A stretch of DNA of 64,000 bases, taken from a virus. Lineage: Duplodnaviria > Heunggongvirae > Uroviricota > Caudoviricetes. Shown one piece after another: positions 1 through 39,830 of this stretch. The stretch lies in the IMG/VR virus record IMGVR_UViG_2703718815_000003; one strand, given 5' to 3'. Position numbers and translations under genes: made by a program. How positions within the stretch are numbered: position 1 is the first letter of the stretch; the number at the start of each line of letters is the position of its first letter. A model generated the notes under the pieces. The model saw nothing but the letters and a program-made list of their open reading frames with translations, did no database searches and had not been told where the DNA came from.

Positions 1-2
1 AT

Positions 3-197
3 GAATATTTTGTTAATCGCATCGCTGGGATCGCTGGTTACGCTGGGCGCGCAGTCGAGCTTATAGATGAAACGACGCGCAAAATTGACTTATTGAGCGA
101 CCAGGAGCGAAAAAAAGCAGACGTGAATGACGCTGATATATTTTTAATGTTAAAAGCGTTTGTAGAAATGGGATTTGAAATCAGTTTACATAAATAA
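3..197 (+). CDS. hypothetical protein, 3' fragment (gene begins left of window)
   Basis: Frame open from window edge to TAA 195-197 (...DVNDADIFLMLKAFVEMGFEISLHK*); followed by two hairpin+T-run terminators. Confidence 0.35.
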   Translation, partial: EYFVNRIAGIAGYAGRAVELIDETTRKIDLLSDQERKKADVNDADIFLMLKAFVEMGFEISLHK

Positions 198-201
198 AAT
201 C

Positions 202-228
202 GAGCGCCCACTATGGGCGCTTTTTTCG
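202..228 (+). terminator. rho-independent terminator
   Basis: agcgccca/tgggcgct stem followed by TTTTTT. Confidence 0.55.
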
Positions 229-235
229 TTTCCAA

Positions 236-800
236 TACTCCCACCATAACGCGCCATCATTAGCGCGTTTTTTATTGTCTTTGACTCACACCAACAACAT
301 AAAAATAAGCGCCAAAATAACGCCATAGACGCGCTTTTATATCCTTACCAGTACATACCCATTACTTAGCGCATTAACGCGCTTAAATCGCGTTATATTG
401 CGTTATGGTGTATGGTTAATCATTGGTTTTTATTCTTGCTATGTGATCCGCGTTTAATTGTCGGCGCGGATCGGCATTTTGTTTTGTTCCGTATCCGCTC
501 GCGTATTATGTGCGCGTGATTTTTCACATAATCACACCACTTAATCACATATGTGATTACGCTACGAAAGAAATCTGGATGTCTCAGGCGACGAAAGTCA
601 TCATAATTTTCCCCGCTCACCTGTCCGACAACCGCTGGTTGGATTCCACCAGCTTCCCGATGTTTTTTCTATATAAAGGCGAATGCAGCCGTTTCCCGAA
701 AAAATCCTGGCCGTTTCCCGTCGGCTCATGAATGCGTTCCTCGCCGTTTCTGAAAATTTCCCTGCGGCAGCTGGTGGCTATAGAGAAAGGGCCGTTTCTG
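236..800. repeat. repeat-dense non-coding region (AACGCG/CGCGTT hairpins, TCACA palindrome, CCGTTTCCC direct repeats)
   Basis: Multiple ATAACGCG/CGCGTTAT copies 244-520; palindrome aatcacatatgtgatt about 540-556; three CCGTTTC(C/T) repeats about 682-745; no convincing ORF. Confidence 0.5.
248..277 (+). terminator. second hairpin + T-run
   Basis: aacgcgcc...gcgcgtt stem followed by TTTTTTATT. Confidence 0.45.
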
Positions 801-813
801 GCCCTCTTCTCAG

Positions 814-1296
814 TTACACGCCATCAAGGATGTGGATGCGGTTGCTTGCGTATACATTCAGCATAAAGTTAGCGCAAAACAGTTTCCATGTGTCAACGCC
901 AGCGGTATACGTAATGTTTTTGCATTTAATCGCATTGTTGGCGATCCGCATCCCCTGCGATACTGCTTCATCGTCGGAAAATTTGAACGACGATTGAGTT
1001 TTAATCCAGACAGAAATCTGCGTAGCGAACTCAATCAGCTTGGACTGGCAGAATCGCCCGGAGCGCACCGGAAAGACGAACGTTCCGAACCCAGAATTTA
1101 CCACATACGCTTTCTCAAATACCCGCGAGTAACGACGATTGCCAATGATGTCGCGTGCAATAATGCATTTTTCTTGTGCTGACAGTTCTACCGTCTCATT
1201 GTCGCGCCATGCACCAAGTACTCGTTTTTCAATGTCAGAGAACGTTACAGCGATATTGCCATGTGCGGGTGCGTTTACAGTAGCGATAAAATTCAT
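814..1296 (-). CDS. hypothetical protein (160 aa)
   Basis: Track ORF; ATG with AAGGA RBS; class I motif just upstream. Confidence 0.55.
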   Translation of the reverse strand: MNFIATVNAPAHGNIAVTFSDIEKRVLGAWRDNETVELSAQEKCIIARDIIGNRRYSRVFEKAYVVNSGFGTFVFPVRSGRFCQSKLIEFATQISVWIKTQSSFKFSDDEAVSQGMRIANNAIKCKNITYTAGVDTWKLFCANFMLNVYASNRIHILDGV

Positions 1297-1315
1297 GATT
1301 AATTCCTTATCGTAA

Positions 1316-1345
1316 ATAACAAATTGTTTTCTTGTTGGTGTTAAT
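1316..1345 (-). promoter_or_regulatory. class I palindromic motif (AACAAaTTGTT core + conserved GTTGGTGTTAATTATCG)
   Basis: Member of 13-copy family AAACAAsTTGTTT, always 15-70 nt upstream of a minus-strand start. Confidence 0.5.
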
Positions 1346-1500
1346 TATCGTTGTACGAATAAGGCGTCAAAGTGGAAAGTTGCGGTAGCCGGACGGGAAC
1401 AGGTGGGTTTGTCGGTTGCCTGGAGGTAAGAGGTTGGTGTTTTTAGCCTGCGGGAAACAGGATGGTCATTTAAGGCCACCAGCATTGGTGGCCTTAATCT

Positions 1501-1782
1501 TTAGTGGAGCAGACCGATGTCGATGGTATCCCCTGAATCATCCACACGGATCATCAGCATGGCAAAGGCGTTTAGTGGATAGCTTGCGTGCCATTCAGGG
1601 AAGCGGTCATCTCGCATGAAGTCGGCAATGTCGTAAACGCATCCCTCAAAGTGGAAGAATCGCGTGCTTACCTGCTCGTCATAATCCACATGATCCATTT
1701 CTTGCTGTTCTGTTTCCGGCAAGTCCAGCCATGATTCAAGGAATACATTTTGTGCTTTAGGGGTAATGGTGAAATCAGTCAT
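1501..1782 (-). CDS. hypothetical protein (93 aa)
   Basis: Track ORF 1501..1914 trimmed to ATG preceded by GAGGA; longer version would overlap class I motif. Confidence 0.5.
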   Translation of the reverse strand: MTDFTITPKAQNVFLESWLDLPETEQQEMDHVDYDEQVSTRFFHFEGCVYDIADFMRDDRFPEWHASYPLNAFAMLMIRVDDSGDTIDIGLLH

Positions 1783-1801
1783 GAGCATATCCTCACTGCG
1801 T

Positions 1802-1834
1802 AAACATATTGTTTTCTTGTTGGTGTAATTATCG
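1802..1834 (-). promoter_or_regulatory. class I palindromic motif
   Basis: aaacatattgttttcttgttggtgtaattatcg. Confidence 0.5.
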
Positions 1835-2117
1835 CAGTGTAGATAAGGCATAAAAGAAGTTAATACAGGCTGAATACACAAGAAAGGTTCTGGAAGTTGA
1901 TAGCCAGGTTTCAAACTAACCTTCGGTTATTAAAAGTCATTTAAGACCACCAATGCTGGTGGCCTTAATAATTATCGCCCGATTACGCTAAGGATCTTTT
2001 CCTCAACTGATTTGTTGTTGCGACTAAACTGCCTTGCGTATCTGATGACAGAAGAGGCGTTTCGCTTTCTGACCATCTCGGCTCTCTCCTTCAGGCGTTT
2101 CTTGAAATCGCCCATAT

Positions 2118-2492
2118 TTACCACCAGGCGCAGAAGGTCAGTCTGTTATTGTGAAAGTCGTGGTTCTTAATCAGATCTTCCACAAGCTCTTTCAACTCCC
2201 CCACATCATGCCAGTAACCTTCATCGTACTCCTGACTGCCGAAGAAAAAACCTTCCCGGGTAGGCAAGTACTCTTCGCAATTACTTTCGTTTATGTGCAT
2301 CAAATGAGCCTTCAGAAAACAAATGTCATTCATCGTTAATTCTAAAAGCTCACAATTTTCGACTTCACCTACGTTGCGCTCCATCCACCCAACGAGCGCA
2401 TTGAACTTACGGAAGTAAGCAACCTGCTTTCTGGATGCCTCGTTATTCAGATCGTTTTTAGGCTGTGTCTCGATATAGATATCAAGTCCCAT
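2118..2492 (-). CDS. hypothetical protein (124 aa)
   Basis: Track ORF (GTG start at 2534) trimmed to ATG with AAGGAAA RBS. Confidence 0.5.
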   Translation of the reverse strand: MGLDIYIETQPKNDLNNEASRKQVAYFRKFNALVGWMERNVGEVENCELLELTMNDICFLKAHLMHINESNCEEYLPTREGFFFGSQEYDEGYWHDVGELKELVEDLIKNHDFHNNRLTFCAWW

Positions 2493-2550
2493 GATGGTTT
2501 CCTTATTAAGTTGCTTCAGTGAAATCATTTTCACAAATCAGATAAGGCAG

Positions 2551-2566
2551 AAAACAAATTGTTATC
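2551..2566 (-). promoter_or_regulatory. class I palindromic motif
   Basis: aaaacaaattgttatc. Confidence 0.4.
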
Positions 2567-2577
2567 GGGCATAAGAA

Positions 2578-2606
2578 AATGGCGCGGTTTACGCGCCATT
2601 CAAAGA
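2578..2606 (-). terminator. rho-independent terminator
   Basis: ggcgcg...cgcgcc stem with T-run on minus strand, downstream of 2610..3005. Confidence 0.5.
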
Positions 2607-2609
2607 GGA

Positions 2610-3005
2610 TTAAGCGAATACGCTTTCAGGGATTAAGGTGTCAGCAGGAATGCCAGAGGTAATGCGCAGGCCGTACTGACCAATCCAGGTAGTGTTGGTA
2701 TTCAGGTTGGAGGCGAATACGGTGTTAACCATATTCATCATGGTTTCAAACACCTCTTCATCAACCTGGCGGAAGTAGTTCTCGATTTTCAGCAGCAGCG
2801 GGTCAGTTGCATCGAGAATGGACTGGTATTGAGTCGCGTACTCGCCGCCGGAGGCATCACCTTTACGCACGATCGTACTGGCCTGGACTTCGGCACCAGT
2901 TTCGGTGTTGTGCGTAACAACGGTGATTTTTGCCACATTCTTACCTTCGGCGGTTTCAGAGGCATAGTAAACATCAACTGTCAGTTTTTCGCGTTTAACG
3001 GTCAT
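2610..3005 (-). CDS. hypothetical protein (131 aa)
   Basis: Track ORF trimmed to ATG (MTVKREKL...) preceded by GGAGAG. Confidence 0.5.
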   Translation of the reverse strand: MTVKREKLTVDVYYASETAEGKNVAKITVVTHNTETGAEVQASTIVRKGDASGGEYATQYQSILDATDPLLLKIENYFRQVDEEVFETMMNMVNTVFASNLNTNTTWIGQYGLRITSGIPADTLIPESVFA

Positions 3006-3044
3006 TTCACTCTCCGTAGTGTTTTGGTTATTTTTATATTCTAT

Positions 3045-3064
3045 GATAGTAAGTATGTACTTAC
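3045..3064. promoter_or_regulatory. class II palindromic motif (TAAGTA..TACTTA core)
   Basis: gatagtaagtatgtacttac; family of about 15 AT-rich palindromes upstream of genes. Confidence 0.45.
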
Positions 3065-3131
3065 AATACAAAAAAGCCCCGTAAGGATGGCGGGGCTGTC
3101 GTACTGTCGACTAATTGCCACTTGCACATTA

Positions 3132-3443
3132 TCAGGCTATTGCCATCACTGATGCTCTCTGAATCTCTTGCTGGGCCACGCGGTTAACTTCCATCAAAGC
3201 CAGTTCGAGCTGATGTTCCGGCCACATTCTTTGAAATGCCACCCAGCCTTTTCCACGCTGGCGACGAACATTCATTACATAACGAGTAAAGGTGTTTTTA
3301 TCGAAAGATACCGCTGTTTCACGGAACAGACGAATAGAGGTTCCATTGGCAACGATGTCCAGCAAAGTTAATTGAGCAACCAGCGCAGGCTTCTCTTTTC
3401 TCTTCTGGTCTTTGTCCAGACCAAGAACCAATGATTTTTTCAT
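3132..3443 (-). CDS. hypothetical protein (103 aa)
   Basis: Track ORF trimmed to ATG (MKKSLVLG...) with GGAG RBS. Confidence 0.5.
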   Translation of the reverse strand: MKKSLVLGLDKDQKRKEKPALVAQLTLLDIVANGTSIRLFRETAVSFDKNTFTRYVMNVRRQRGKGWVAFQRMWPEHQLELALMEVNRVAQQEIQRASVMAIA

Positions 3444-3454
3444 TACAACTCCGT

Positions 3455-3470
3455 AAACAACTTGTTTTCT
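3455..3470 (-). promoter_or_regulatory. class I palindromic motif
   Basis: aaacaacttgttttct. Confidence 0.5.
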
Positions 3471-3596
3471 CAATGGCGTAAATAATACCAGTAAGAAAAC
3501 GGCTACAAAGCATATTGATCAGGCGCATGAGCGATATGCAGGTTCTTCCCTGCGGCTATAGAGAAATTAAGCCAGCAATGCTGGCTTTGGTTGGGG

Positions 3597-3926
3597 TTAC
3601 TCGAATACTTCAAGAAACTCCTGAACGTCCCAATGCTGGACGAGGTGAAGATAGACCTTAGAAATCACGTCATTTTCGCTATCGCATGTGAAGTAGTACT
3701 TCTGGCTGCGGTTGTATGTGTCCACACAAAATTCGCTCATATCCATAAAGTCAGCATCTTCACCCATGTCGCAAATCATCAAAGCAGGTGCGTCATCACG
3801 AGTCATCAGCTCAAGCACCCACCGCGAATTGATCAGAGTGGAAGACCAACCTTCTAACTCATAAAACTGATCAAACTCTTTTTGAGTTAATTTCTTGATT
3901 TGGTTGATGTCGATATTTGCAAACAT
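3597..3926 (-). CDS. hypothetical acidic protein (109 aa)
   Basis: Track ORF trimmed to ATG (MFANIDIN...) with AAGGA RBS; D/E-rich. Confidence 0.5.
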   Translation of the reverse strand: MFANIDINQIKKLTQKEFDQFYELEGWSSTLINSRWVLELMTRDDAPALMICDMGEDADFMDMSEFCVDTYNRSQKYYFTCDSENDVISKVYLHLVQHWDVQEFLEVFE

Positions 3927-3938
3927 AAAGCAATCCTT

Positions 3939-3971
3939 AAACAACTTGTTTTCTCGTTGGTGTTATTATCG
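3939..3971 (-). promoter_or_regulatory. class I palindromic motif
   Basis: aaacaacttgttttctcgttggtgttattatcg. Confidence 0.5.
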
Positions 3972-4263
3972 CAATAACGCACAGGCGAAAAAGGATTTTA
4001 TTCCGGTGAATGTTGTTTTGGCAGTGAGTTTTCAGGTTCAGTATCGAGTACACTTTTTACATTATTCTGATTTAGTGGCCGAAGGTGGCTGGTGGCAGAG
4101 TAATCCTCTCCCCAAAAACCTACTGAAATCGATTGTGCCCCGTTGGCTGTCTGGCACAATTACGCTGTAGCTGGGCATTCAGAGGGAATCCAGCGGTAAG
4201 CAAGTCCGCCTACGTGAGCGCCTCTCTTCTTCCCGCACATTACAGGTGGGTAGCCGCAACTCT

Positions 4264-4420
4264 CCCTCTCGCTATACCGGTACGCCGCCGTTCCTGAACC
4301 GGCATCGAGCCTTCTCCCGAAATCCACACAGGCAACTCGACCGTTTCCCTGAAAACCTCCAGCCGTTCCCCGAAGGCAACCCAGCCGTTTCTGTAGCGGG
4401 ATGCAACCTTTTCCCTGTAT
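4264..4420. repeat. cluster of degenerate direct repeats (G)CCGTT(T/C)CC
   Basis: At least 5 copies in about 150 bp; same unit as at 682-745. Confidence 0.5.
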
Positions 4421-4559
4421 GGACCGAAGGCTGACCGTAGGGGTTTTACGGGGGATAAAATCAGGAGTTGAATAAATACGAAAAAGGAGGCGACACCCCT
4501 CCTTCCCTCCCCACTTATACATACCTGGCTTCTTCGCTATACATGTTGTGTTTTATCTG

Positions 4560-5330
4560 TCTCAACCTCTCTATAGGCGTTAATGCTCACTCCTTCCAGA
4601 ATGTTCTATACGGCGACTATTTCTGTTGGTGAATTGGGTGTGTTGTTCTCTCTGTCGGTGTATGTGGTTTCGTTCGTTTTGCGGTGGTTCTTCTATGGGG
4701 TGTTCTCGTCGTTTTGGTGATTGTTCTTCTCCGTGTATGGAGTAATGGCAGGTGGGCGATTCCTTTCGTTGTTGTGTTTGAGTTGTTTGTCTGGAGTGTG
4801 TGAAAGGCTTTTGTAGTTATTCGTGTATTGGGTAATGGCATTTCCCGTGATTGTTATGTTTCGTGTCTTTTGGGATTGAGAGAATCCTTGCGGTTACAGG
4901 CTTCGTTGGGGTTTCAGTGATTCTGGTGTTTCTTCGCTGTTTGGGGAATGGCGTGTCGTGGGTATCGCGCGTATGAATGTTTTCGGATTGCCTGTGAAAG
5001 TTAGGTTGGTTGTCCGGTAGCCTGGGGAGAAGAGGTGGGTTGTTTTTGGAAATGGCATGTGTGTTATTTAGTTGTTTTGTTATGCCTGAAAATAAGTTGT
5101 TTATATGGTTGTGTAACGCAACGGGAGCGATTTTGAGCGTGTGTTTTTGTTGGTAGTGTGTTGGGTCGTCTGTGGTGAAAATTGGACGCTGTGGCGCTGT
5201 CTGCTGCGTAGAGTTGCGGGTATAAGAAGTGATGTGTGAAAACGTCAATTTTTTAGACCAAATCGGGTGAAAGCGTTGACGTTTCGTTGATCTGTTATTT
5301 AGTTGTTTTCTTATTTGTATAAACAACCAT
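4560..5330. other. GT-rich strand-skewed ORF-poor tract
   Basis: Plus strand almost devoid of C with many GG/GGG runs; only low-complexity T/H/K/P-rich minus-strand ORFs. Confidence 0.5.
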
Positions 5331-5436
5331 AACCTATTGATATTTAAGGGTATGATTGCAGGTATGGAAGGGGAGTAGTGGCGATCAACGGATTCTTATA
5401 GAAAAGAATCAAATTGTGACCGCCATTATCAATGTT

Positions 5437-6171
5437 TTACATAGTTTTGTTTAGCAGAGAGAGAATTTCATCACTAATTTCACTCGCCTGTTTGATAGCC
5501 AATGCAGTTACCTCTTCTATGGTTGGTGACTGTTGATGCTCATGTTTGGTTTCAGTTATGACAATGTGTTCTTCACCTGAATTTGCGCATAGTGCCGCAT
5601 TGACGATAAGGTTTGAGTAAGAATTTAGCAGAGCACTGTTGATGAACGCTTTCACGGTATTACTGTCTGCACCAAATACATCTTTTCTGACCGCTTCAGC
5701 CTCACAGCGAACCCCTGCAGCAACATCGTGAAGAACATGTATGGCCTTGGAGCTTGTTTGTTCACAGTACTCAATCATTATTGTCGAATTGTTCTGTTCA
5801 ACAAACGATCTGATGCCTGACGATTCACCCATAGCATCGAAGGCAGCATGACCCGCACTGGTAGAGATATCTTCATAGAGTTCTTCATCGCTATCTTTTT
5901 CTTCAGGTGTCGAGGTGTCTTCATCGTCGTAATAGATATTGCCTTTAATCAGTGTCTTGGACACTTGATATAAACAATAAGAAACGAGATTTAAGCATTG
6001 GATTTTAGCTGTATTGTCCTTTGTCGCCTCGCTCTTCAGTTCTTTCGCTTCTTCAGTAAGGCTGTTGATAAGACTTTGTATTTTTTCCAACGCGTTAGGC
6101 GCACACTCCGCGTTGTCCATAAAGAATTTATAACCAGTCCCAGGGATTTCTAAACTTTTCAACTTTTTCAT
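5437..6171 (-). CDS. hypothetical protein (244 aa), AT-rich
   Basis: Track ORF with ATG start. Confidence 0.5.
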   Translation of the reverse strand: MKKLKSLEIPGTGYKFFMDNAECAPNALEKIQSLINSLTEEAKELKSEATKDNTAKIQCLNLVSYCLYQVSKTLIKGNIYYDDEDTSTPEEKDSDEELYEDISTSAGHAAFDAMGESSGIRSFVEQNNSTIMIEYCEQTSSKAIHVLHDVAAGVRCEAEAVRKDVFGADSNTVKAFINSALLNSYSNLIVNAALCANSGEEHIVITETKHEHQQSPTIEEVTALAIKQASEISDEILSLLNKTM

Positions 6172-6216
6172 TTCTTTGATAATCCTAAAAACAAACTACC
6201 AATGCTTTAATATCTG

Positions 6217-6516
6217 TTACCAGTTCCAGCACTCAAGCCCTTCAACGACCGGCGCACCACAATCAAAATGTACAGAGTCAAAGCCTACATCAAGTACTTT
6301 CTGAATGTTAGCAATCGCGCCTTCGGATATACCATATCGACGCAAGTCGTCTTTCCAGACATCATTCTGTAACCCGGCGTGAACAATACAACCGCCATCA
6401 ATTTGTGAAACCCAATCCAGCTCATTGCTTGCGATCATGAATCGGCGAGCATCTTCCTCTGATGTATGAGATGAACTGATCAATGCCACCTGGTAGGCTT
6501 GGGTAATGTTCAACAT
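6217..6516 (-). CDS. hypothetical protein (99 aa)
   Basis: Track ORF; two class I motifs upstream. Confidence 0.5.
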   Translation of the reverse strand: MLNITQAYQVALISSSHTSEEDARRFMIASNELDWVSQIDGGCIVHAGLQNDVWKDDLRRYGISEGAIANIQKVLDVGFDSVHFDCGAPVVEGLECWNW

Positions 6517-6528
6517 TTCAACTACTCC

Positions 6529-6545
6529 AAAACAAGTTGTTTTCT
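6529..6545 (-). promoter_or_regulatory. class I palindromic motif
   Basis: aaaacaagttgttttct. Confidence 0.5.
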
Positions 6546-6578
6546 TATGTGGCTTATTATCTCAATCAACAAAAGGTA

Positions 6579-6595
6579 GAAAACAAATTGTTTTA
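6579..6595 (-). promoter_or_regulatory. class I palindromic motif
   Basis: gaaaacaaattgtttta preceded by aaaaggtag (same extension as copy near 15015). Confidence 0.45.
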
Positions 6596-6626
6596 GGGCT
6601 TGTGTAAATCAGGAGGGATTGTGTCT

Positions 6627-6657
6627 ATATGAAAATGCCCAGCGTGTTGCCGGGCAT
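6627..6657 (-). terminator. rho-independent terminator downstream of metG
   Basis: atgcccagc...gccgggcat stem followed by T-run on minus strand. Confidence 0.6.
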
Positions 6658-6677
6658 TGTGAAAAATGGTTGTTTAG

Positions 6678-8711
6678 TTACTTAACTTGGTGGCCTGGTT
6701 TAGCACCAGCATCCGGGCTTAACAGGAAGATATCTTTTCCGCCAGGGCCAGCAGCCATCACCATGCCTTCGGAGATACCGAAGCGCATTTTACGCGGTGC
6801 CAGGTTAGCCACCATAATGGTGTGACGACCAATCAGTGCCTGTGGGTCTGGATAAGCAGAACGGATGCCTGAGAAGACATTGCGTTTTTCACCGCCGAGA
6901 TCCAGCGTCAGGCGCAGCAGTTTGTCAGAACCTTCAACAAACTCTGCGTTTTCGATCAGTGCCACGCGCAGGTCAACTTTGGCAAAGTCGTCAAAGGTGA
7001 TGGTTTCCTGAATCGGGTCGTCTGCCAGCGGGCCAGTAACTGGCGCGGCAGCTGCTTTCACTTCTTCTTTGGATGCTTCCACCAGTGCTTCAACCTGCTT
7101 CATATCGATGCGGTTATACAGTGCCTTGAACGGATTCACTTTATGGCCCAGCAGCGGTTGCTGGATACCATCCCAGGTCAGTTCTGTATTCAGGAATGCT
7201 TCTGCACGTTCAGTCAGTTTCGGCAGTACCGGCTTCAGGTACGTCATCAGCACGCGGAACAGGTTAATGCCCATAGAGCAAATCGCCTGCAGATCGGCAT
7301 CGCGTCCTTCCTGCTTCGCCACCACCCACGGAGCCTGTTCATCGACATAGCGGTTAGCCAGGTCAGCCAATGCCATGATTTCACGGATAGCTTTACCAAA
7401 TTCACGGCTTTCCCATGCTTCGCCAATCACTTCAGCGGCATCAGTAAAGGTTTTGTACAGTTGCGGGTCAGCCAGTTCGCTTGCCAGCACGCCGTCAAAA
7501 CGCTTGTTGATAAAGCCTGCATTACGGGAGGCCAGGTTAACCACTTTGTTCACGATATCGGCATTCACGCGCTGAACGAAATCCTCCAGGTTGAGATCGA
7601 TATCATCAATGCGCGAAGAGAGTTTCGCAGTGTAGTAGTAACGCAGGCTGTCAGCGTCAAAATGATTCAGCCAGGTGCTGGCTTTAATAAAGGTGCCGCG
7701 AGACTTGGACATCTTCGCGCCGTTCACCGTCACATAGCCGTGAACAAACAGGTTGGTCGGCTTGCGGAAGTTGCTGCCTTCCAGCATGGCAGGCCAGAAC
7801 AGGCTGTGGAAGTAAACAATATCTTTACCGATGAAGTGGTACAGCTCGGCGGTGGAGTCTTTCTTCCAGTATTCATCGAAGCTGGTGGTATCGCCGCGCT
7901 TGTCGCACAGATTCTTGAAGGAACCCATGTAGCCAATCGGCGCGTCCAGCCAGACGTAGAAATATTTGCCCGGCGCGTTCGGAATTTCAAAACCGAAGTA
8001 GGGCGCATCTCGGGAGATATCCCACTGTTGCAGGCCGGATTCAAACCATTCCTGCATTTTGTTCGCCACCTGCTCCTGCAACGCGCCGCTGCGGGTCCAT
8101 GCCTGCAACATTTCGCTGAAAGAAGGCAGATCAAAGAAGAAGTGTTCGGAATCACGCATTACCGGGGTAGCGCCAGAAACCACCGATTTCGGCTCGATCA
8201 ATTCAGTCGGGCTATATGTTGCGCCGCAGACTTCACAGTTATCGCCGTATTGATCTGGCGCTTTACATTTCGGGCAGGTGCCTTTTACAAAACGATCCGG
8301 CAGGAACATGCCTTTTTCCGGGTCGTACAACTGAGAGATAGTGCGGTTTTTAATAAAACCGTTCTCTTTCAGGCGAGTATAGATAAGCTCAGACAACTGA
8401 CGGTTCTCTTCGCTGTGCGTCGAGTGATAGTTGTCATAGCTGATGTTAAAGCCTGCGAAATCAGTCTGGTGTTCCTGACTCATTTCGCCAATCATCTGCT
8501 CCGGTGTGATACCAAGCTGCTGTGCTTTCAGCATGATCGGCGTACCGTGGGCATCGTCGGCACAGATGAAATTAACCTCGTGGCCGCGCATTCGCTGGTA
8601 ACGAACCCAGACATCAGCCTGGATGTGCTCCAGCATATGGCCGAGGTGGATTGAGCCGTTAGCGTACGGCAGCGCGCACGTCACCAGAATTTTCTTCGCG
8701 ACTTGGGTCAT
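6678..8711 (-). CDS. metG: methionyl-tRNA synthetase
   Basis: Track ORF trimmed to ATG ([26 protein letters not shown]...); KMSKS motif (GAKMSKSRG); C-terminal tRNA-binding domain; enterobacterial-like, about 677 aa. Confidence 0.95.
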
Positions 8712-8868
8712 AGTAGGCATTACTTCTTTGTAGTGAAAAGGGGCTTGATAGTAACAAAATGGCCTTATGTCTGCCATGTGATAACAGCATTTCTCATAAA
8801 TGATTAAATGTCGTAGCTGGAGTACACTACAAGGCGACAATTGCGCAAATTAAAATAAAGGAGACGGG

Positions 8869-9969
8869 ATGAGCGAGTCCAAATCGCCGGATGCCCTGAG
8901 AGCAATGGTAGCCGGTACGCTGGCTAATTTTCAGCACCCAACCCTGAAACACAACCTGACTACGCTTAAAGCGTTACACCATGTTGCGTTGATGGATGAC
9001 ACACTGCATGTCGAACTAATCATGCCTTTCGTGTGGAATAAGCCTTTTGAAGACCTGAAAGAGCAATGTAGTGGTGATCTGCTCCGTATCACTGGCGCAA
9101 AGGCTATTGACTGGAAGCTGTCGTACAACATTGCCACGCTTAAGCGCGTCAAAAACCAACCAGGCATTAATGGCGTTAAGAACATTATCGCCGTCAGCTC
9201 AGGCAAGGGCGGCGTGGGTAAATCCTCCACGGCGGTAAACCTGGCACTGGCGTTGGCTGCTGAAGGTGCGAAAGTTGGTATTTTGGATGCCGATATCTAT
9301 GGTCCATCAATTCCAACCATGCTGGGCGCGGAAAACCAACGTCCAACCTCACCTGACGGTACTCACATGGCACCTATCATGTCTCATGGCCTGGCAACCA
9401 ACTCTATTGGTTATCTGGTCACCGACGACAATGCAATGGTGTGGCGTGGACCGATGGCGAGCAAGGCGTTAATGCAGATGTTGCAGGAAACATTGTGGCC
9501 TGATCTGGACTATCTTGTTCTCGATATGCCGCCGGGCACTGGTGATATTCAGTTGACGCTGGCGCAGAACATTCCTGTAACTGGTGCTGTTGTGGTAACT
9601 ACGCCGCAAGACATCGCGCTGATCGATGCGAAGAAAGGCATTGTGATGTTCGAAAAAGTCGAAGTGCCGGTACTTGGTATCGTCGAAAACATGAGTGTGC
9701 ATATTTGCAGTAACTGCGGTCATCACGAGCCAATTTTTGGCACCGGTGGCGCAGAGAAACTGGCCGAGAAATACAACACGCAGTTGTTAGGCCAAATGCC
9801 ACTTCATATCTCTCTTCGTGAAGATCTGGATAACGGAACACCAACCGTTATTAGTCGTCCAGATAGTGAATTTACGGCTATTTATCGTGACCTCGCAGAT
9901 CGCGTTGCTGCCCAAATGTATTGGCAAGGTGAAGTAATACCTGGCGAAATCGCATTCCGCGCAGTGTGA
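8869..9969 (+). CDS. apbC: Mrp/ApbC family Fe-S cluster carrier ATPase
   Basis: 366 aa; Walker A SGKGGVGKS; CxxC near C-terminus; divergent from metG as in enterobacterial chromosomes. Confidence 0.9.
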   Translation: MSESKSPDALRAMVAGTLANFQHPTLKHNLTTLKALHHVALMDDTLHVELIMPFVWNKPFEDLKEQCSGDLLRITGAKAIDWKLSYNIATLKRVKNQPGINGVKNIIAVSSGKGGVGKSSTAVNLALALAAEGAKVGILDADIYGPSIPTMLGAENQRPTSPDGTHMAPIMSHGLATNSIGYLVTDDNAMVWRGPMASKALMQMLQETLWPDLDYLVLDMPPGTGDIQLTLAQNIPVTGAVVVTTPQDIALIDAKKGIVMFEKVEVPVLGIVENMSVHICSNCGHHEPIFGTGGAEKLAEKYNTQLLGQMPLHISLREDLDNGTPTVISRPDSEFTAIYRDLADRVAAQMYWQGEVIPGEIAFRAV

Positions 9970-38414: not shown

Positions 38415-38494
38415 ATGTCATTTTTCTGTGATTGTTAGCCGAGGCAACGATAACCCACCAGGTGCGCCGAAGGTAGTAAATGCCTGTTTTAATT

Positions 38495-38580
38495 ATTCAC
38501 ATATCCACAGGATAGATCCTAATAAAGAGATCCATAGATAGATCCTTGTATAGATCAAATAAGATCCCCGATCGCTGTAA
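38495..38580. promoter_or_regulatory. origin-like region: DnaA-box-like site + GATC cluster
   Basis: atatccaca (8/9 to TTATCCACA) followed by 6 GATC sites in about 70 bp. Confidence 0.55.
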
Positions 38581-38610
38581 GCCGCGCCACGACTGGTCTG
38601 AAGCCATGTT

Positions 38611-38720
38611 CATGTATGCTGTCAGCGGTAATTGATAGTCTGTCAGCGGTTCACCGTATGCTGCCAACTGTTTTTGGTATTCTGTCAGCGGCAAATCAAG
38701 TATGCTGTCAGCGGTTGAAT
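38611..38720. repeat. iteron array upstream of repA (about 5 copies TATGCTGTCAGCGGT)
   Basis: Direct repeats, same orientation, ending about 15 nt before repA ATG. Confidence 0.75.
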
Positions 38721-38735
38721 GACAAAGGTGTCCAC

Positions 38736-39830
38736 ATGTCCACAAAAAATAAAAAAGGTAAAAATAACAAAGAAGTAGAAGATAATCTCGACAACTTTGA
38801 AGAAGGTTCCCTTGAATTGTACACAGGGGAACTTGTCCCTAATAGCAACAATACAGTCCAACCAATTGCGTTGATGCGGCTGGGATTGTTCGTGCCCACG
38901 CTCAAGGGGACAAAATACAGCAAGCGTAACAAGCCAAATGAGATCGATGCTTCAAAGGAGCTTGTTCAGCTCGAAGTAGCCCGTTCTGAAGGCTATTCCG
39001 ATATCAAGATAACCGGTCCTCGTCTCGACATGGATCATGATTTCAAAACGTGGGTGGGCGTTGTGCGTTCGCTGGCAGAATACGGCGAACCTAACGGTCG
39101 TGTCGAGTTAAGCATCACGAAATTTGCGAAGTTTTGTGGCTATCCATCGTCACAGATCCGCAAAACACTCCGCGACCGGCTTACAAACAGTCTTTTGAAG
39201 ATCATGCGTACAACTCTGTCTTTCCAGAGAACGTATGAAGAAAAGAACGTCGACGGCTCTAACAAGATCTCGCTTCTGATGGTGCACCTCATCAATAGCG
39301 TGGACTACAACGAGCAGAAAGATACGGTGGTGTTCTATGCAGAACCGAAGCTGGCCGAACTATATCGCTTTGACCATAAGGTTCTTTTGCAGTTAAAGGT
39401 TATCAATAAGCTACCACGCAAAGAAACAGCACAGGCTCTGTACACCTTCATCGAAAGTCTTCCAACCAAGCCTGCGCCGGTATCGCTTGCTCGATTGCGT
39501 GCGCGACTCAATTTGAGTAGCAGGAATGTCAGCTCGCAGAATCAGACTATACGCAACGGCTTAAAAGCTCTCCAAGATTTGGGTTATCTCGAATACAGCG
39601 AGATTAAGCGAGGGCGGTCGATCTATATCCAGATTCACAGCCGCAATCCAAAACTCAAAGTCGCACCGCCAAAACCTGAAGACATCGAACCCAAAAAACT
39701 AGATGAGAAAGCTGGGGAAATTGATGCCAAACAGAACATTATCAACAAGATAACCGAACTTTCGCAGAATTTGACGCCTGAAAATATCAAGATGATTGAG
39801 ATCCTTTCCAATAGTCTCAAACTGCTTTGA
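38736..39830 (+). CDS. repA: RepA-type iteron-binding replication initiator
   Basis: Track ORF trimmed to ATG (MSTKNKKGK...) with AAAGGTG RBS; 364 aa; flanked by iterons; motif NSNNTVQPIALMRLGLFVP. Confidence 0.7.
   Translation: MSTKNKKGKNNKEVEDNLDNFEEGSLELYTGELVPNSNNTVQPIALMRLGLFVPTLKGTKYSKRNKPNEIDASKELVQLEVARSEGYSDIKITGPRLDMDHDFKTWVGVVRSLAEYGEPNGRVELSITKFAKFCGYPSSQIRKTLRDRLTNSLLKIMRTTLSFQRTYEEKNVDGSNKISLLMVHLINSVDYNEQKDTVVFYAEPKLAELYRFDHKVLLQLKVINKLPRKETAQALYTFIESLPTKPAPVSLARLRARLNLSSRNVSSQNQTIRNGLKALQDLGYLEYSEIKRGRSIYIQIHSRNPKLKVAPPKPEDIEPKKLDEKAGEIDAKQNIINKITELSQNLTPENIKMIEILSNSLKLL

Follow-up and report, generated by a model that had tools for sequence, protein, structure and literature searches.

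What keeps a gene-free stretch of DNA with two strikingly different strands in place, in an element that reads almost entirely in one direction? The question is raised by positions 4560-5330 of a 64,000-nucleotide stretch of viral DNA (IMG/VR record IMGVR_UViG_2703718815_000003; hereafter the window), which by its sequence matches is an Escherichia coli phage-plasmid of the SSU5/Cyrano type, an element about 110 kb in length. A preliminary description of this tract, made from the letters alone, had suggested a cis-acting element rather than coding sequence. We find a conserved, non-coding, G/T-rich tract whose leftward transcript would be C-rich and almost free of structure, and we tentatively propose that the region may act as a Rho-type insulator of transcription in which regulator sites are embedded.

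Over 4560-5330 the plus strand contains A 0.162, C 0.134, G 0.306 and T 0.398 (G+T 70%), and over the core at 4600-5200 it contains A 0.138, C 0.120, G 0.333 and T 0.409. In 700-nt windows G+T reaches a maximum of 0.726, about seven standard deviations (SD) above the mean of the 64-kb window (0.504, SD 0.031), and the 15 top-scoring windows all fall within the tract, which confirms the strand asymmetry noted earlier. This composition is unique within the whole 110-kb element; in the complete related plasmid pEC16-526_1 the 500-nt G+T maximum of 0.748 lies in the tract, versus at most 0.588 elsewhere. The skew is of the keto/amino type, with A and C both depleted about two-fold. The plus strand had been called almost C-free, which is right as to the depletion and overstated as to its degree, since C is only halved (12-13% versus 24%) and A is equally low. 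Runs of GGG, also remarked on earlier, are densest here, with 9-11 per 500 nt versus a mean of 3.4. Nearly all genes of the element, both tract neighbours included, lie on the minus strand, and plus-strand GC skew is negative throughout the element with the tract as the sole exception.

The tract is a feature of SSU5-type phage-plasmids. Region 4000-5450 was matched in 243 of 5,426 complete E. coli genomes, every time on plasmids of about 105-115 kb, and no chromosomal copy was found among these genomes. An alignable region is present in 839 plasmids of PLSDB (from Klebsiella, Escherichia, Enterobacter, Salmonella, Citrobacter, Cronobacter and Shigella) and in 12 SSU5-like phage records, the phages matched being Escherichia phage Cyrano, CMS-2020a, PhiR41_1, Salmonella phage SSU5 and Klebsiella relatives. 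Across the enterobacteria, counts of tract-positive plasmids follow, genus by genus, those of plasmids with an SSU5-type large terminase (TerL). The exception is Yersinia pestis pMT1, from which the tract was deleted within a block of about 31 kb adjoining IS1541. At the pMT1 locus examined (L143, NZ_CP009989.1, 51.8-53 kb) this loss covers the small genes, the tract, the cargo slot and nucleotide-metabolism genes, and the plasmid retains the terminase, ParB-like genes, a helicase and a FljA-like gene. As pMT1 lives without the tract, maintenance of the plasmid does not require it. No comparable tract exists in Acinetobacter relatives (terminase 59% identical), and a scan of species-representative genomes with the flanking open reading frame (ORF) as protein query gave no matches.

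Conservation in close relatives had been proposed as a check, and the tract is kept, with the same composition, in all 37 of the non-redundant homologues compared, which represent about nine lineages (A 0.14-0.18, C 0.12-0.21, G 0.27-0.34, T 0.33-0.41). A span of 0.75-1.0 kb with G+T of at least 0.62 occurs in every representative, and length, orientation and motif arrays are retained despite a between-lineage identity over the region of 47-75%. Even the Cronobacter sp. JZ38 type, the most divergent lineage, has the skew, the CCGTTTCC units and three or four plus-oriented TAATGGC motifs that are described below. Between the window and SSU5, identity is 66% in the tract and 67% and 83% in neighbouring protein-gene blocks. 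As conservation between clades matches that of a neighbouring block of genes (67%), and variability within the E. coli clade is not above that of the flanks, the region is, as judged from these alignments, under constraint. Composition kept while identity falls is what a composition-dependent function would predict.

This pattern bears on the proposal that the tract has no function and that its skew is a mutational by-product, for example of deamination of an often single-stranded strand in a decaying spacer. Deamination of exposed single-stranded DNA, C to T and A to G, yields a G+T-rich strand, as in the mitochondrial heavy strand, and such a strand is indeed what we see; the orphan promoter-like modules within the tract would also suit a spacer in decay. 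Nevertheless, the length is similar in every lineage, plasmid numbers follow those of TerL-positive SSU5-type plasmids in each genus, and the tract is conserved like neighbouring coding DNA, with conserved motif arrays, two blocks at about 0.9 identity (4700-4760 and 5085-5145) and no excess of variation within the E. coli clade. Furthermore, leftward genes would expose the minus strand as the non-template strand, so that deamination should make that strand G/T-rich, the opposite of what the tract displays. We regard a functionless origin as scarcely credible.

The informative strand is probably the minus strand, which is the sense of all flanking genes. Leftward RNA over the tract would be about 40% A, 30% C, 13% G and 16% U. 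Over 4530-5330 it has C 0.30 and G 0.135 (C/G 2.23), 99 pyrimidine-C (YC) dimers and four AUG triplets, with no start codon preceded by a Shine-Dalgarno site, and the eight most C-over-G 300-nt windows of leftward RNA in the 64 kb all lie in the tract. The consensus folding energy in the minus sense is 0.0 kcal/mol over 4530-4830 (14 diverse sequences), and the single-sequence minimum free energy (MFE) over 821 nt is -110 kcal/mol in the minus sense versus -210 kcal/mol in the plus sense. The leftward RNA does not pair with itself because it is made of A and C, in agreement with the zero consensus energy. It thus has two traits of a Rho utilisation (rut) region, namely a C-rich, G-poor stretch of 70-80 nt or more and freedom from secondary structure and translating ribosomes (consensus MFE 0.0, no coding signal). 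The GC skew changes sign at about 4530, at the segment that we call module B, and in the adjoining module A (4264-4425) it is the plus strand that is C-rich (C 0.39, G 0.20), so that transcripts running into the region from left or right would alike be C-rich and G-poor.

The gene map around the tract has two unlike sides. To the left lie small minus-strand genes common to the relatives. Beyond 5440, on the right, the cargo of the relatives is unrelated (DUF4145, NYN, GIY-YIG, LprI/ydfZ/DUF1380 or restriction-modification genes), and the nearest gene on that side is read from the minus strand in 12 of the 13 relatives for which the right flank was fetched. Six relatives have a plus-strand gene on the left flank, and in SSU5-type lineages the map is convergent, with a plus-strand gene of 80 codons on the left and minus-strand cargo on the right. 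In the window, the cargo beside the tract includes a complete methionyl-tRNA synthetase gene, metG, together with apbC (6678-9969), near-identical to host genes; the comparison with relatives indicates that the pair is cargo of the E. coli clade and not chromosome. RNA-seq of LF82/Cyrano found the cargo gene CYRAN_102 expressed (57 normalised) and zero reads in LB for CYRAN_103, which starts about 110 nt downstream of CYRAN_102, inside the tract (PMC9928086 S1 Table), an indirect sign that transcripts may end in between.

From composition, orientation and this one expression table, the function that we infer, as a possibility that we hold only tentatively, is that of a Rho-type insulator. The tract would be the core of a control region separating the variable cargo slot on its right from the small-gene cluster on its left, whose members are individually promoted, operator-bearing and read leftward. 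Transcripts leaving the cargo genes would pass a boundary hairpin (5379-5425), beyond which the naked, C-rich and YC-rich RNA would be a substrate for Rho loading and so lead to Rho termination; in the E. coli clade, an intrinsic terminator at 4476-4507 could serve as a final backup. Inserted cargo, whatever its kind, would then be unable to drive the downstream small genes. Module A, C-rich on the other strand, would have the same effect on transcripts entering from the left, the side on which the plus-strand gene sits in SSU5-type lineages. The buffer would also hold specific sites (an operator-like palindrome with half sites, three to six TAATGGC repeats and the 22-bp-phased CCGTTTCC array), which most likely bind regulators encoded by the element.

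In its working, such a region comes closest to Rho-dependent terminators and rut sites (lambda tR1, trp t', Rho-attenuated long 5' leaders). The tract RNA is likewise C-rich, G-poor, unstructured and untranslated, lies downstream of a coding unit with a protective hairpin upstream, and has the orientation of the flanking genes. The tract differs in being about ten times longer and in holding conserved blocks and repeat arrays, and we know of no described counterpart of a convergent, two-sided rut arrangement.

Several observations weigh against a Rho-type insulator. For Rho to load, a C-rich stretch of some 80 nt of RNA is needed, and the tract has 700-800. The repeat arrays and the blocks at about 0.9 identity are unaccounted for by Rho, and the blocks would be unexpected if the role were purely compositional. 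The TAATGGC repeats are conserved beyond composition and must therefore be sequence-specific sites, and the 22-bp phasing of module A indicates protein binding at the level of DNA, not RNA. SSU5 has not kept the left-hand terminator. Finally, the expression table covers annotated ORFs only, with about 4470-4970 outside them, and its counts may not be strand-specific.

The tract is part of a larger conserved non-coding region, NCR2 (3945-5436), bounded by the promoter of the last small minus-strand gene (which ends at 3926) and by the stop codon of a 244-aa ORF (5437-6171), the first cargo gene. NCR2 has no coding sequence (CDS) called by the Prokaryotic Genome Annotation Pipeline (PGAP) and corresponds to the region alignable in the 839 plasmids and 12 phages. 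A gap of about 1.5 kb free of PGAP CDS recurs in 12 related plasmid records; older or non-PGAP records (Cyrano, SSU5, Cronobacter plasmid pGK1025B_1) place unrelated short ORFs in it. Alignments of 15, later 37, non-redundant homologues divide the region into modules. Module A holds six CCGTTYCC-type (CCGTTTCC) units. Module B (4440-4525) has the consensus GTTACGGGGGAT..CTTGAATAAATACG..AGCGAyaCCCCTCC..CCCACTTATAC and an identity to other clades of 0.68-0.78; the terminator-like hairpin with U-run at 4476-4507 (minus strand, -15.2 kcal/mol) faces leftward transcripts and is present in the E. coli clade, weaker in Klebsiella and absent from SSU5. Module C (4560-5230, plus strand) is the G/T-rich tract proper, of which the minus strand reads C/A-rich. 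Module D (5230-5440; most conserved block 5205-5330) is the best-conserved part. It comprises an inverted repeat AACGTCAA...TTGACGTT (5242-5283) with a TTGACG -35-like hexamer in each arm, one leftward and one rightward; two copies of the 22-bp motif TGTTATTTAGTTGTTTTsTTAT, with the second TGTTATTTAGTTGTTTTCTTAT copy (5293-5314) nearly invariant across all lineages; and the right-boundary hairpin GGCGGUCA...UGAUCGCC (5379-5425, minus strand; -19.1 kcal/mol, z -6.3), directly downstream of the cargo genes. This hairpin folds better as minus-sense RNA because of a G.U pair.

Could the region encode protein after all? The ORFs present had been dismissed as low-complexity artefacts, and we agree: those of 74 and 169 aa on the minus strand are a chance product of a stop-poor, C/A-rich strand. 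A protein-coding tract was rejected, with no PGAP CDS, no codon periodicity of substitutions and ratios of non-synonymous to synonymous polymorphism (pN/pS) of 0.65-1.1 in all six frames. A narrower proposal is that hydrophobic peptides of very small size, one or several, are encoded on the plus strand, whose G/T-rich codons give Val, Gly, Cys, Leu, Phe and Trp. The candidates are a 45-codon ORF at 4583-4720 (MLTPSRMFYTATISVGELGVLFSLSVYVVSFVLRWFFYGVFSSFW) and short ORFs for which the conserved ATGGC within each repeat would supply the start. Most lineages keep the frame at 4607-4720 open, with an in-frame indel of 12 nt and a common stop; its pN/pS is 0.65 versus 0.9-1.1 in the other two frames, base composition over 4550-4730 has a period of three at a level like that of real genes, and every TAATGGC repeat contains ATG followed by GC(A/G). 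However, a pN/pS of 0.65, the value of the best frame and over 111 nt only, is far from real-gene values, there is no conserved start codon or Shine-Dalgarno site, and the ORF is broken in one E. coli-clade relative (L064). ORFs started at ATGGC range from 2 to 104 codons and are not conserved, and substitutions in the tract lack codon periodicity. Such peptides, unannotated by PGAP, would account for at most 140 of the 770 nt, and we consider them very improbable.

A structured RNA fares no better. MFE z-scores are +0.4 for the plus and -1.5 for the minus sense, with consensus energies, again from 14 diverse sequences, of 0 to -10 kcal/mol per 150 nt; positions 1-7000 gave no Rfam match at E up to 1 (GOLLD, ROOL and CsrB included), and ARAGORN reported no tRNA or tmRNA. 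Periodicities of 3 and 12 nt in pooled spectra were not robust in single sequences. G-quadruplex propensity, which had been proposed as a check, found no support, as no canonical motif (G3+ N1-7 x4) occurs on either strand. An R-loop formed by the G-rich strand was likewise rejected, since its rightward RNA has an unfavourable free-energy difference (ddG) of +0.02 to +0.07 kcal/nt. The suggested recombination hotspot also fails: the tract has no Chi site (GCTGGTGG), none lies between 4096 and 7880, and the nearest, at 4088, is not conserved. Elsewhere in the window Chi is abundant, with 15 copies in both orientations (e.g. 770, 1476, 1955, 4088) versus 1.4 expected from shuffles, two of them inside near-identical terminator hairpins (TTAAGGCCACCAnnnnTGGTGGCCTTAA, 1455-1500 and 1925-1970).

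The idea of a replication origin does not hold for the plasmid type. The plasmid replicon occupies 38493-38715 and 38616-39830, where the start of a RepB-family initiator gene (at 38614-39830 together with its iterons) overlaps five 21-bp-spaced iterons GTATGCTGTCAGCGG, with GATAGATCC repeats and a DnaA box upstream. This replicon is 34 kb away and unrelated, no DnaA box was found in 3945-5440, and pMT1 replicates without the region. RepB incompatibility iterons in the tract were rejected as well, as GTATGCTGTCAGCGG is a different sequence. Thus, of the preliminary view that this is a cis-acting element and not coding DNA, the general part stands, in that the region is non-coding and constrained and has same-orientation arrays, and a G-quadruplex, a recombination hotspot and an origin of the plasmid type are not supported. 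A cis-acting role remains a reasonable reading.

The arrays themselves are of two kinds. In module A, CCGTTTCC units lie at about 4287 and about 4310 (both weaker) and at 4341, 4363, 4385 and 4407, these last four on one strand and exactly 22 bp apart, and the array recurs in SSU5 with the same phasing. The repeat cluster reported at 4264-4420 is therefore real as a local cluster, with six units, four of them at 22 bp; it does not reflect an enrichment across the window, where the CCGTTYCC 8-mer has 5 exact copies versus 2.6 expected and 50 versus 42 with one mismatch. The second cluster that had been placed near 682-745 is also present (682-810, plus strand; units at 689, 711, 744 and 792), at the far end of the small-gene cluster, and is kept in the Cronobacter relative. 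Given its strict two-turn (22-bp) phasing, module A looks like a protein-binding array on DNA. Its GTTTC core seems to resemble the ParB-type half sites of chromosomal parS (GTTTCAC).

In module C, the unit G(G/A)GTAATGGC(A/G) is present three to six times, depending on the lineage, always in one orientation and preceded by some 25 bp of common sequence. In the window, all on the plus strand, these TAATGGC repeats are TGTATGGAGTAATGGCAG (4734-4751, inside the best-conserved tract block, 4700-4760), TGTATTGGGTAATGGCAT (4824-4841), the degenerate GGGGAATGGCG (4936-4953) and TGTTTTTGGAAATGGCAT (5041-5058). They are directly oriented, with spacings of 41-144 bp and no helical phasing, and arrays have the same orientation in every lineage. 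Sigma-54 and T4-late-like promoters in the repeats were rejected on spacing or copy number. Next to the last copy lies the motif GGTAGCCTG-N-AGAGGTGGGT (5016-5040, plus strand), which is duplicated in other clades, with one or two per tract. In the form GGTAGCC-N(8-10)-AGGTGGGT, it occurs at 5016-5040 and also twice at 1385-1442, just upstream of the promoter of a 160-aa gene, and it may be an activator site. An RfaH ops-like CGGTAGnnTG within the GGTAGCCTG motif has the wrong orientation for the genes and a frequency at chance level.

Direct repeats of this kind suggest a lytic replication origin or another nucleoprotein site on DNA. Either an initiator encoded by the element would bind the CCGTTTCC iterons together with the TAATGGC repeats and the conserved blocks that are AT-rich, or an untranslated leftward transcript would form an R-loop over module A and prime DNA synthesis, as in ColE1 or T4 oriF. 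Same-orientation arrays with a variable copy number (3-6), the exact phasing of four module A units and the second cluster elsewhere recall iteron and centromere arrays (P1 oriR/incA, F sopC, lambda ori), from which the tract differs in that its repeats are unlike the element's own RepB iterons, no initiator gene or DnaA box adjoins it, and the TAATGGC repeats are widely and irregularly spaced, without phasing, at the distances given above. The replication genes lie 45 kb away. As for priming, the 200-nt windows of leftward RNA starting at 4100-4250, which overlap module A and the left flank, are the most hybrid-favourable in the 64 kb (-0.156 kcal/nt, z -3.7), and in every one of the 11 related loci the hybrid-energy minimum falls at the equivalent position. 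Among the proteins that the element encodes are RNase HI, a UvsW-like helicase, RecA, a DnaB-like helicase and DnaE. R-loop-primed origins (ColE1 RNA II, T4 oriF/oriG, the mitochondrial conserved sequence block) similarly combine an untranslated transcript with a segment of unusually stable RNA:DNA hybrid, and the RNase H and UvsW-like helicase add to the likeness. In contrast, the G-rich strand of the tract gives a G/U-rich rightward RNA, with the positive ddG values reported above, that is unfavourable for hybrids, and no convincing conserved sigma-70 promoter reads into the tract, the -10 elements lacking T at -7. Maintenance of pMT1 without the tract would fit a phage-phase function, although a deletion spanning 31 kb says nothing specific to the tract. 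On balance we think a lytic origin or similar site unlikely, if worth keeping in view.

The palindromes of the region point to regulation. At 5062-5103, TGTTATTTAGTTGTTTTGTTAT is followed by the 13-bp palindrome AAATAAGTTGTTT, the two forming an operator-like pair; the palindrome is a perfect AAACAAnTTGTTT in other clades and in module C is accompanied by half sites. In addition to the tract site at 5090, AAACAAnTTGTTT sites are found at 1317, 1802, 2552, 3455, 3939, 6530, 6581, 19557 and 20286. In at least nine small minus-strand genes, one of them TerB-like, the palindrome separates a GATAAT-like -10 from the ribosome-binding site. Its distance from the promoter varies among these genes, which favours a role of AAACAAnTTGTTT as a DNA operator. 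The palindrome-bearing genes stand as separate units, each with a closing hairpin, and several are up in macrophages (LF82); together they look like one regulon under one regulator.

The same palindromes raise the question of whether the tract is itself a gene, for a regulatory non-coding RNA. An operator-controlled promoter module at about 5090-5140 and/or 5290-5330 would then make a structure-free, C/A-rich RNA of 0.6-0.8 kb, ending in the E. coli clade at the 4476-4507 terminator, that could be a decoy for Rho, Hfq or a FljA-like protein, with the repeated GCCAUUAC... units as binding or pairing sites. The two tract modules do resemble the promoter-operator modules of the small genes, yet no gene follows them, and a terminator-like hairpin lies at the left end. 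Nevertheless, the promoter hexamers of these orphan modules are poor, and CYRAN_103, which overlaps the first 115 nt of the RNA, is near the floor while neighbouring operator genes are induced in macrophages. Repeated units of 17-25 nt in compositionally constrained sequence recall sponge RNAs (CsrB/RsmZ for CsrA, CrcZ for Hfq/Crc), which share a length of several hundred nucleotides, repeated short motifs, biased composition and weak structure; read leftward, module A has GGA-containing units about every 22 nt. The tract differs in the absence of an Rfam match and in units longer than known protein-binding motifs. A-rich Hfq-type motifs number about 4-5 by eye versus about 3 expected (0.4^6 x 700 nt, a rough estimate). 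Nor were host targets found, with no chromosomal match to the tract or its best block in the 5,426 E. coli genomes and no stretch of about 20 nt or longer that is complementary to the E. coli chromosome.

Some 6 kb to the left lies the gene of a full-length post-transcriptional repressor of the FljA type (PMC2652032), one of the proteins for which such an RNA could be a decoy. However, the fliC 5' untranslated region (UTR), the known FljA target, has no similarity to the region, and a FljA decoy by mimicry of this UTR was rejected, as alignment scores fell within those of shuffles and 8-9-nt matches were at chance level. A regulatory RNA gene thus seems to us distinctly unlikely. A bolder version, which we rate as a little less probable again, sees in the tract a gene or zone dedicated to structure-free RNA, in which selection keeps a 0.6-0.8-kb non-folding A+C transcript. 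At induction, the operator-controlled modules would fire and the RNA would, improbable as we find it, either soak up Rho as an anti-terminator decoy or prime lytic replication. The priming would proceed by template invasion over the hybrid-prone CCGTTTCC array, and in this version the same DNA would serve during lysogeny as a Rho-dependent firewall.

The FljA-type gene lies just outside the window (L001 3553-4077) and is annotated as 'transcriptional regulator'. Its product is a full-length FljA-type repressor of phase-1 flagellin (PF03614, E 1e-80) with a weak Hfq-like match. FljA acts post-transcriptionally on fliC mRNA (PMC2652032), and therefore SSU5-type phage-plasmids may switch off host flagellin. 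At its other end, the small-gene cluster is bordered by a second gene-free region (230-813). In it are two terminators on the plus strand, TAACGCG/GCGTTA repeats numbering six or seven, palindromes of the forms GATCCGCG/CGCGGATC and AATCACA/TGTGATT, and the second of the CCGTTTCC clusters.

No description of the tract was found in searches of the literature on SSU5, pHCM2, Cyrano and the non-coding regions or origins of phage-plasmids, and the region is, as far as these searches show, hitherto undescribed and unannotated. It is easy to recognise and can be tested in LF82/Cyrano, which is inducible with ciprofloxacin. The tract appears to be a clean natural case in which selection acts on the composition of a strand and not on its sequence. 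Among clinical E. coli, Klebsiella, Salmonella and Enterobacter, phage-plasmids of the SSU5 type are common, and they carry resistance and defence cargo. An insulator at the cargo slot, if that is what the tract proves to be, would account for the way in which the slot can take up cargo of very different kinds while the phage programme runs on undisturbed.

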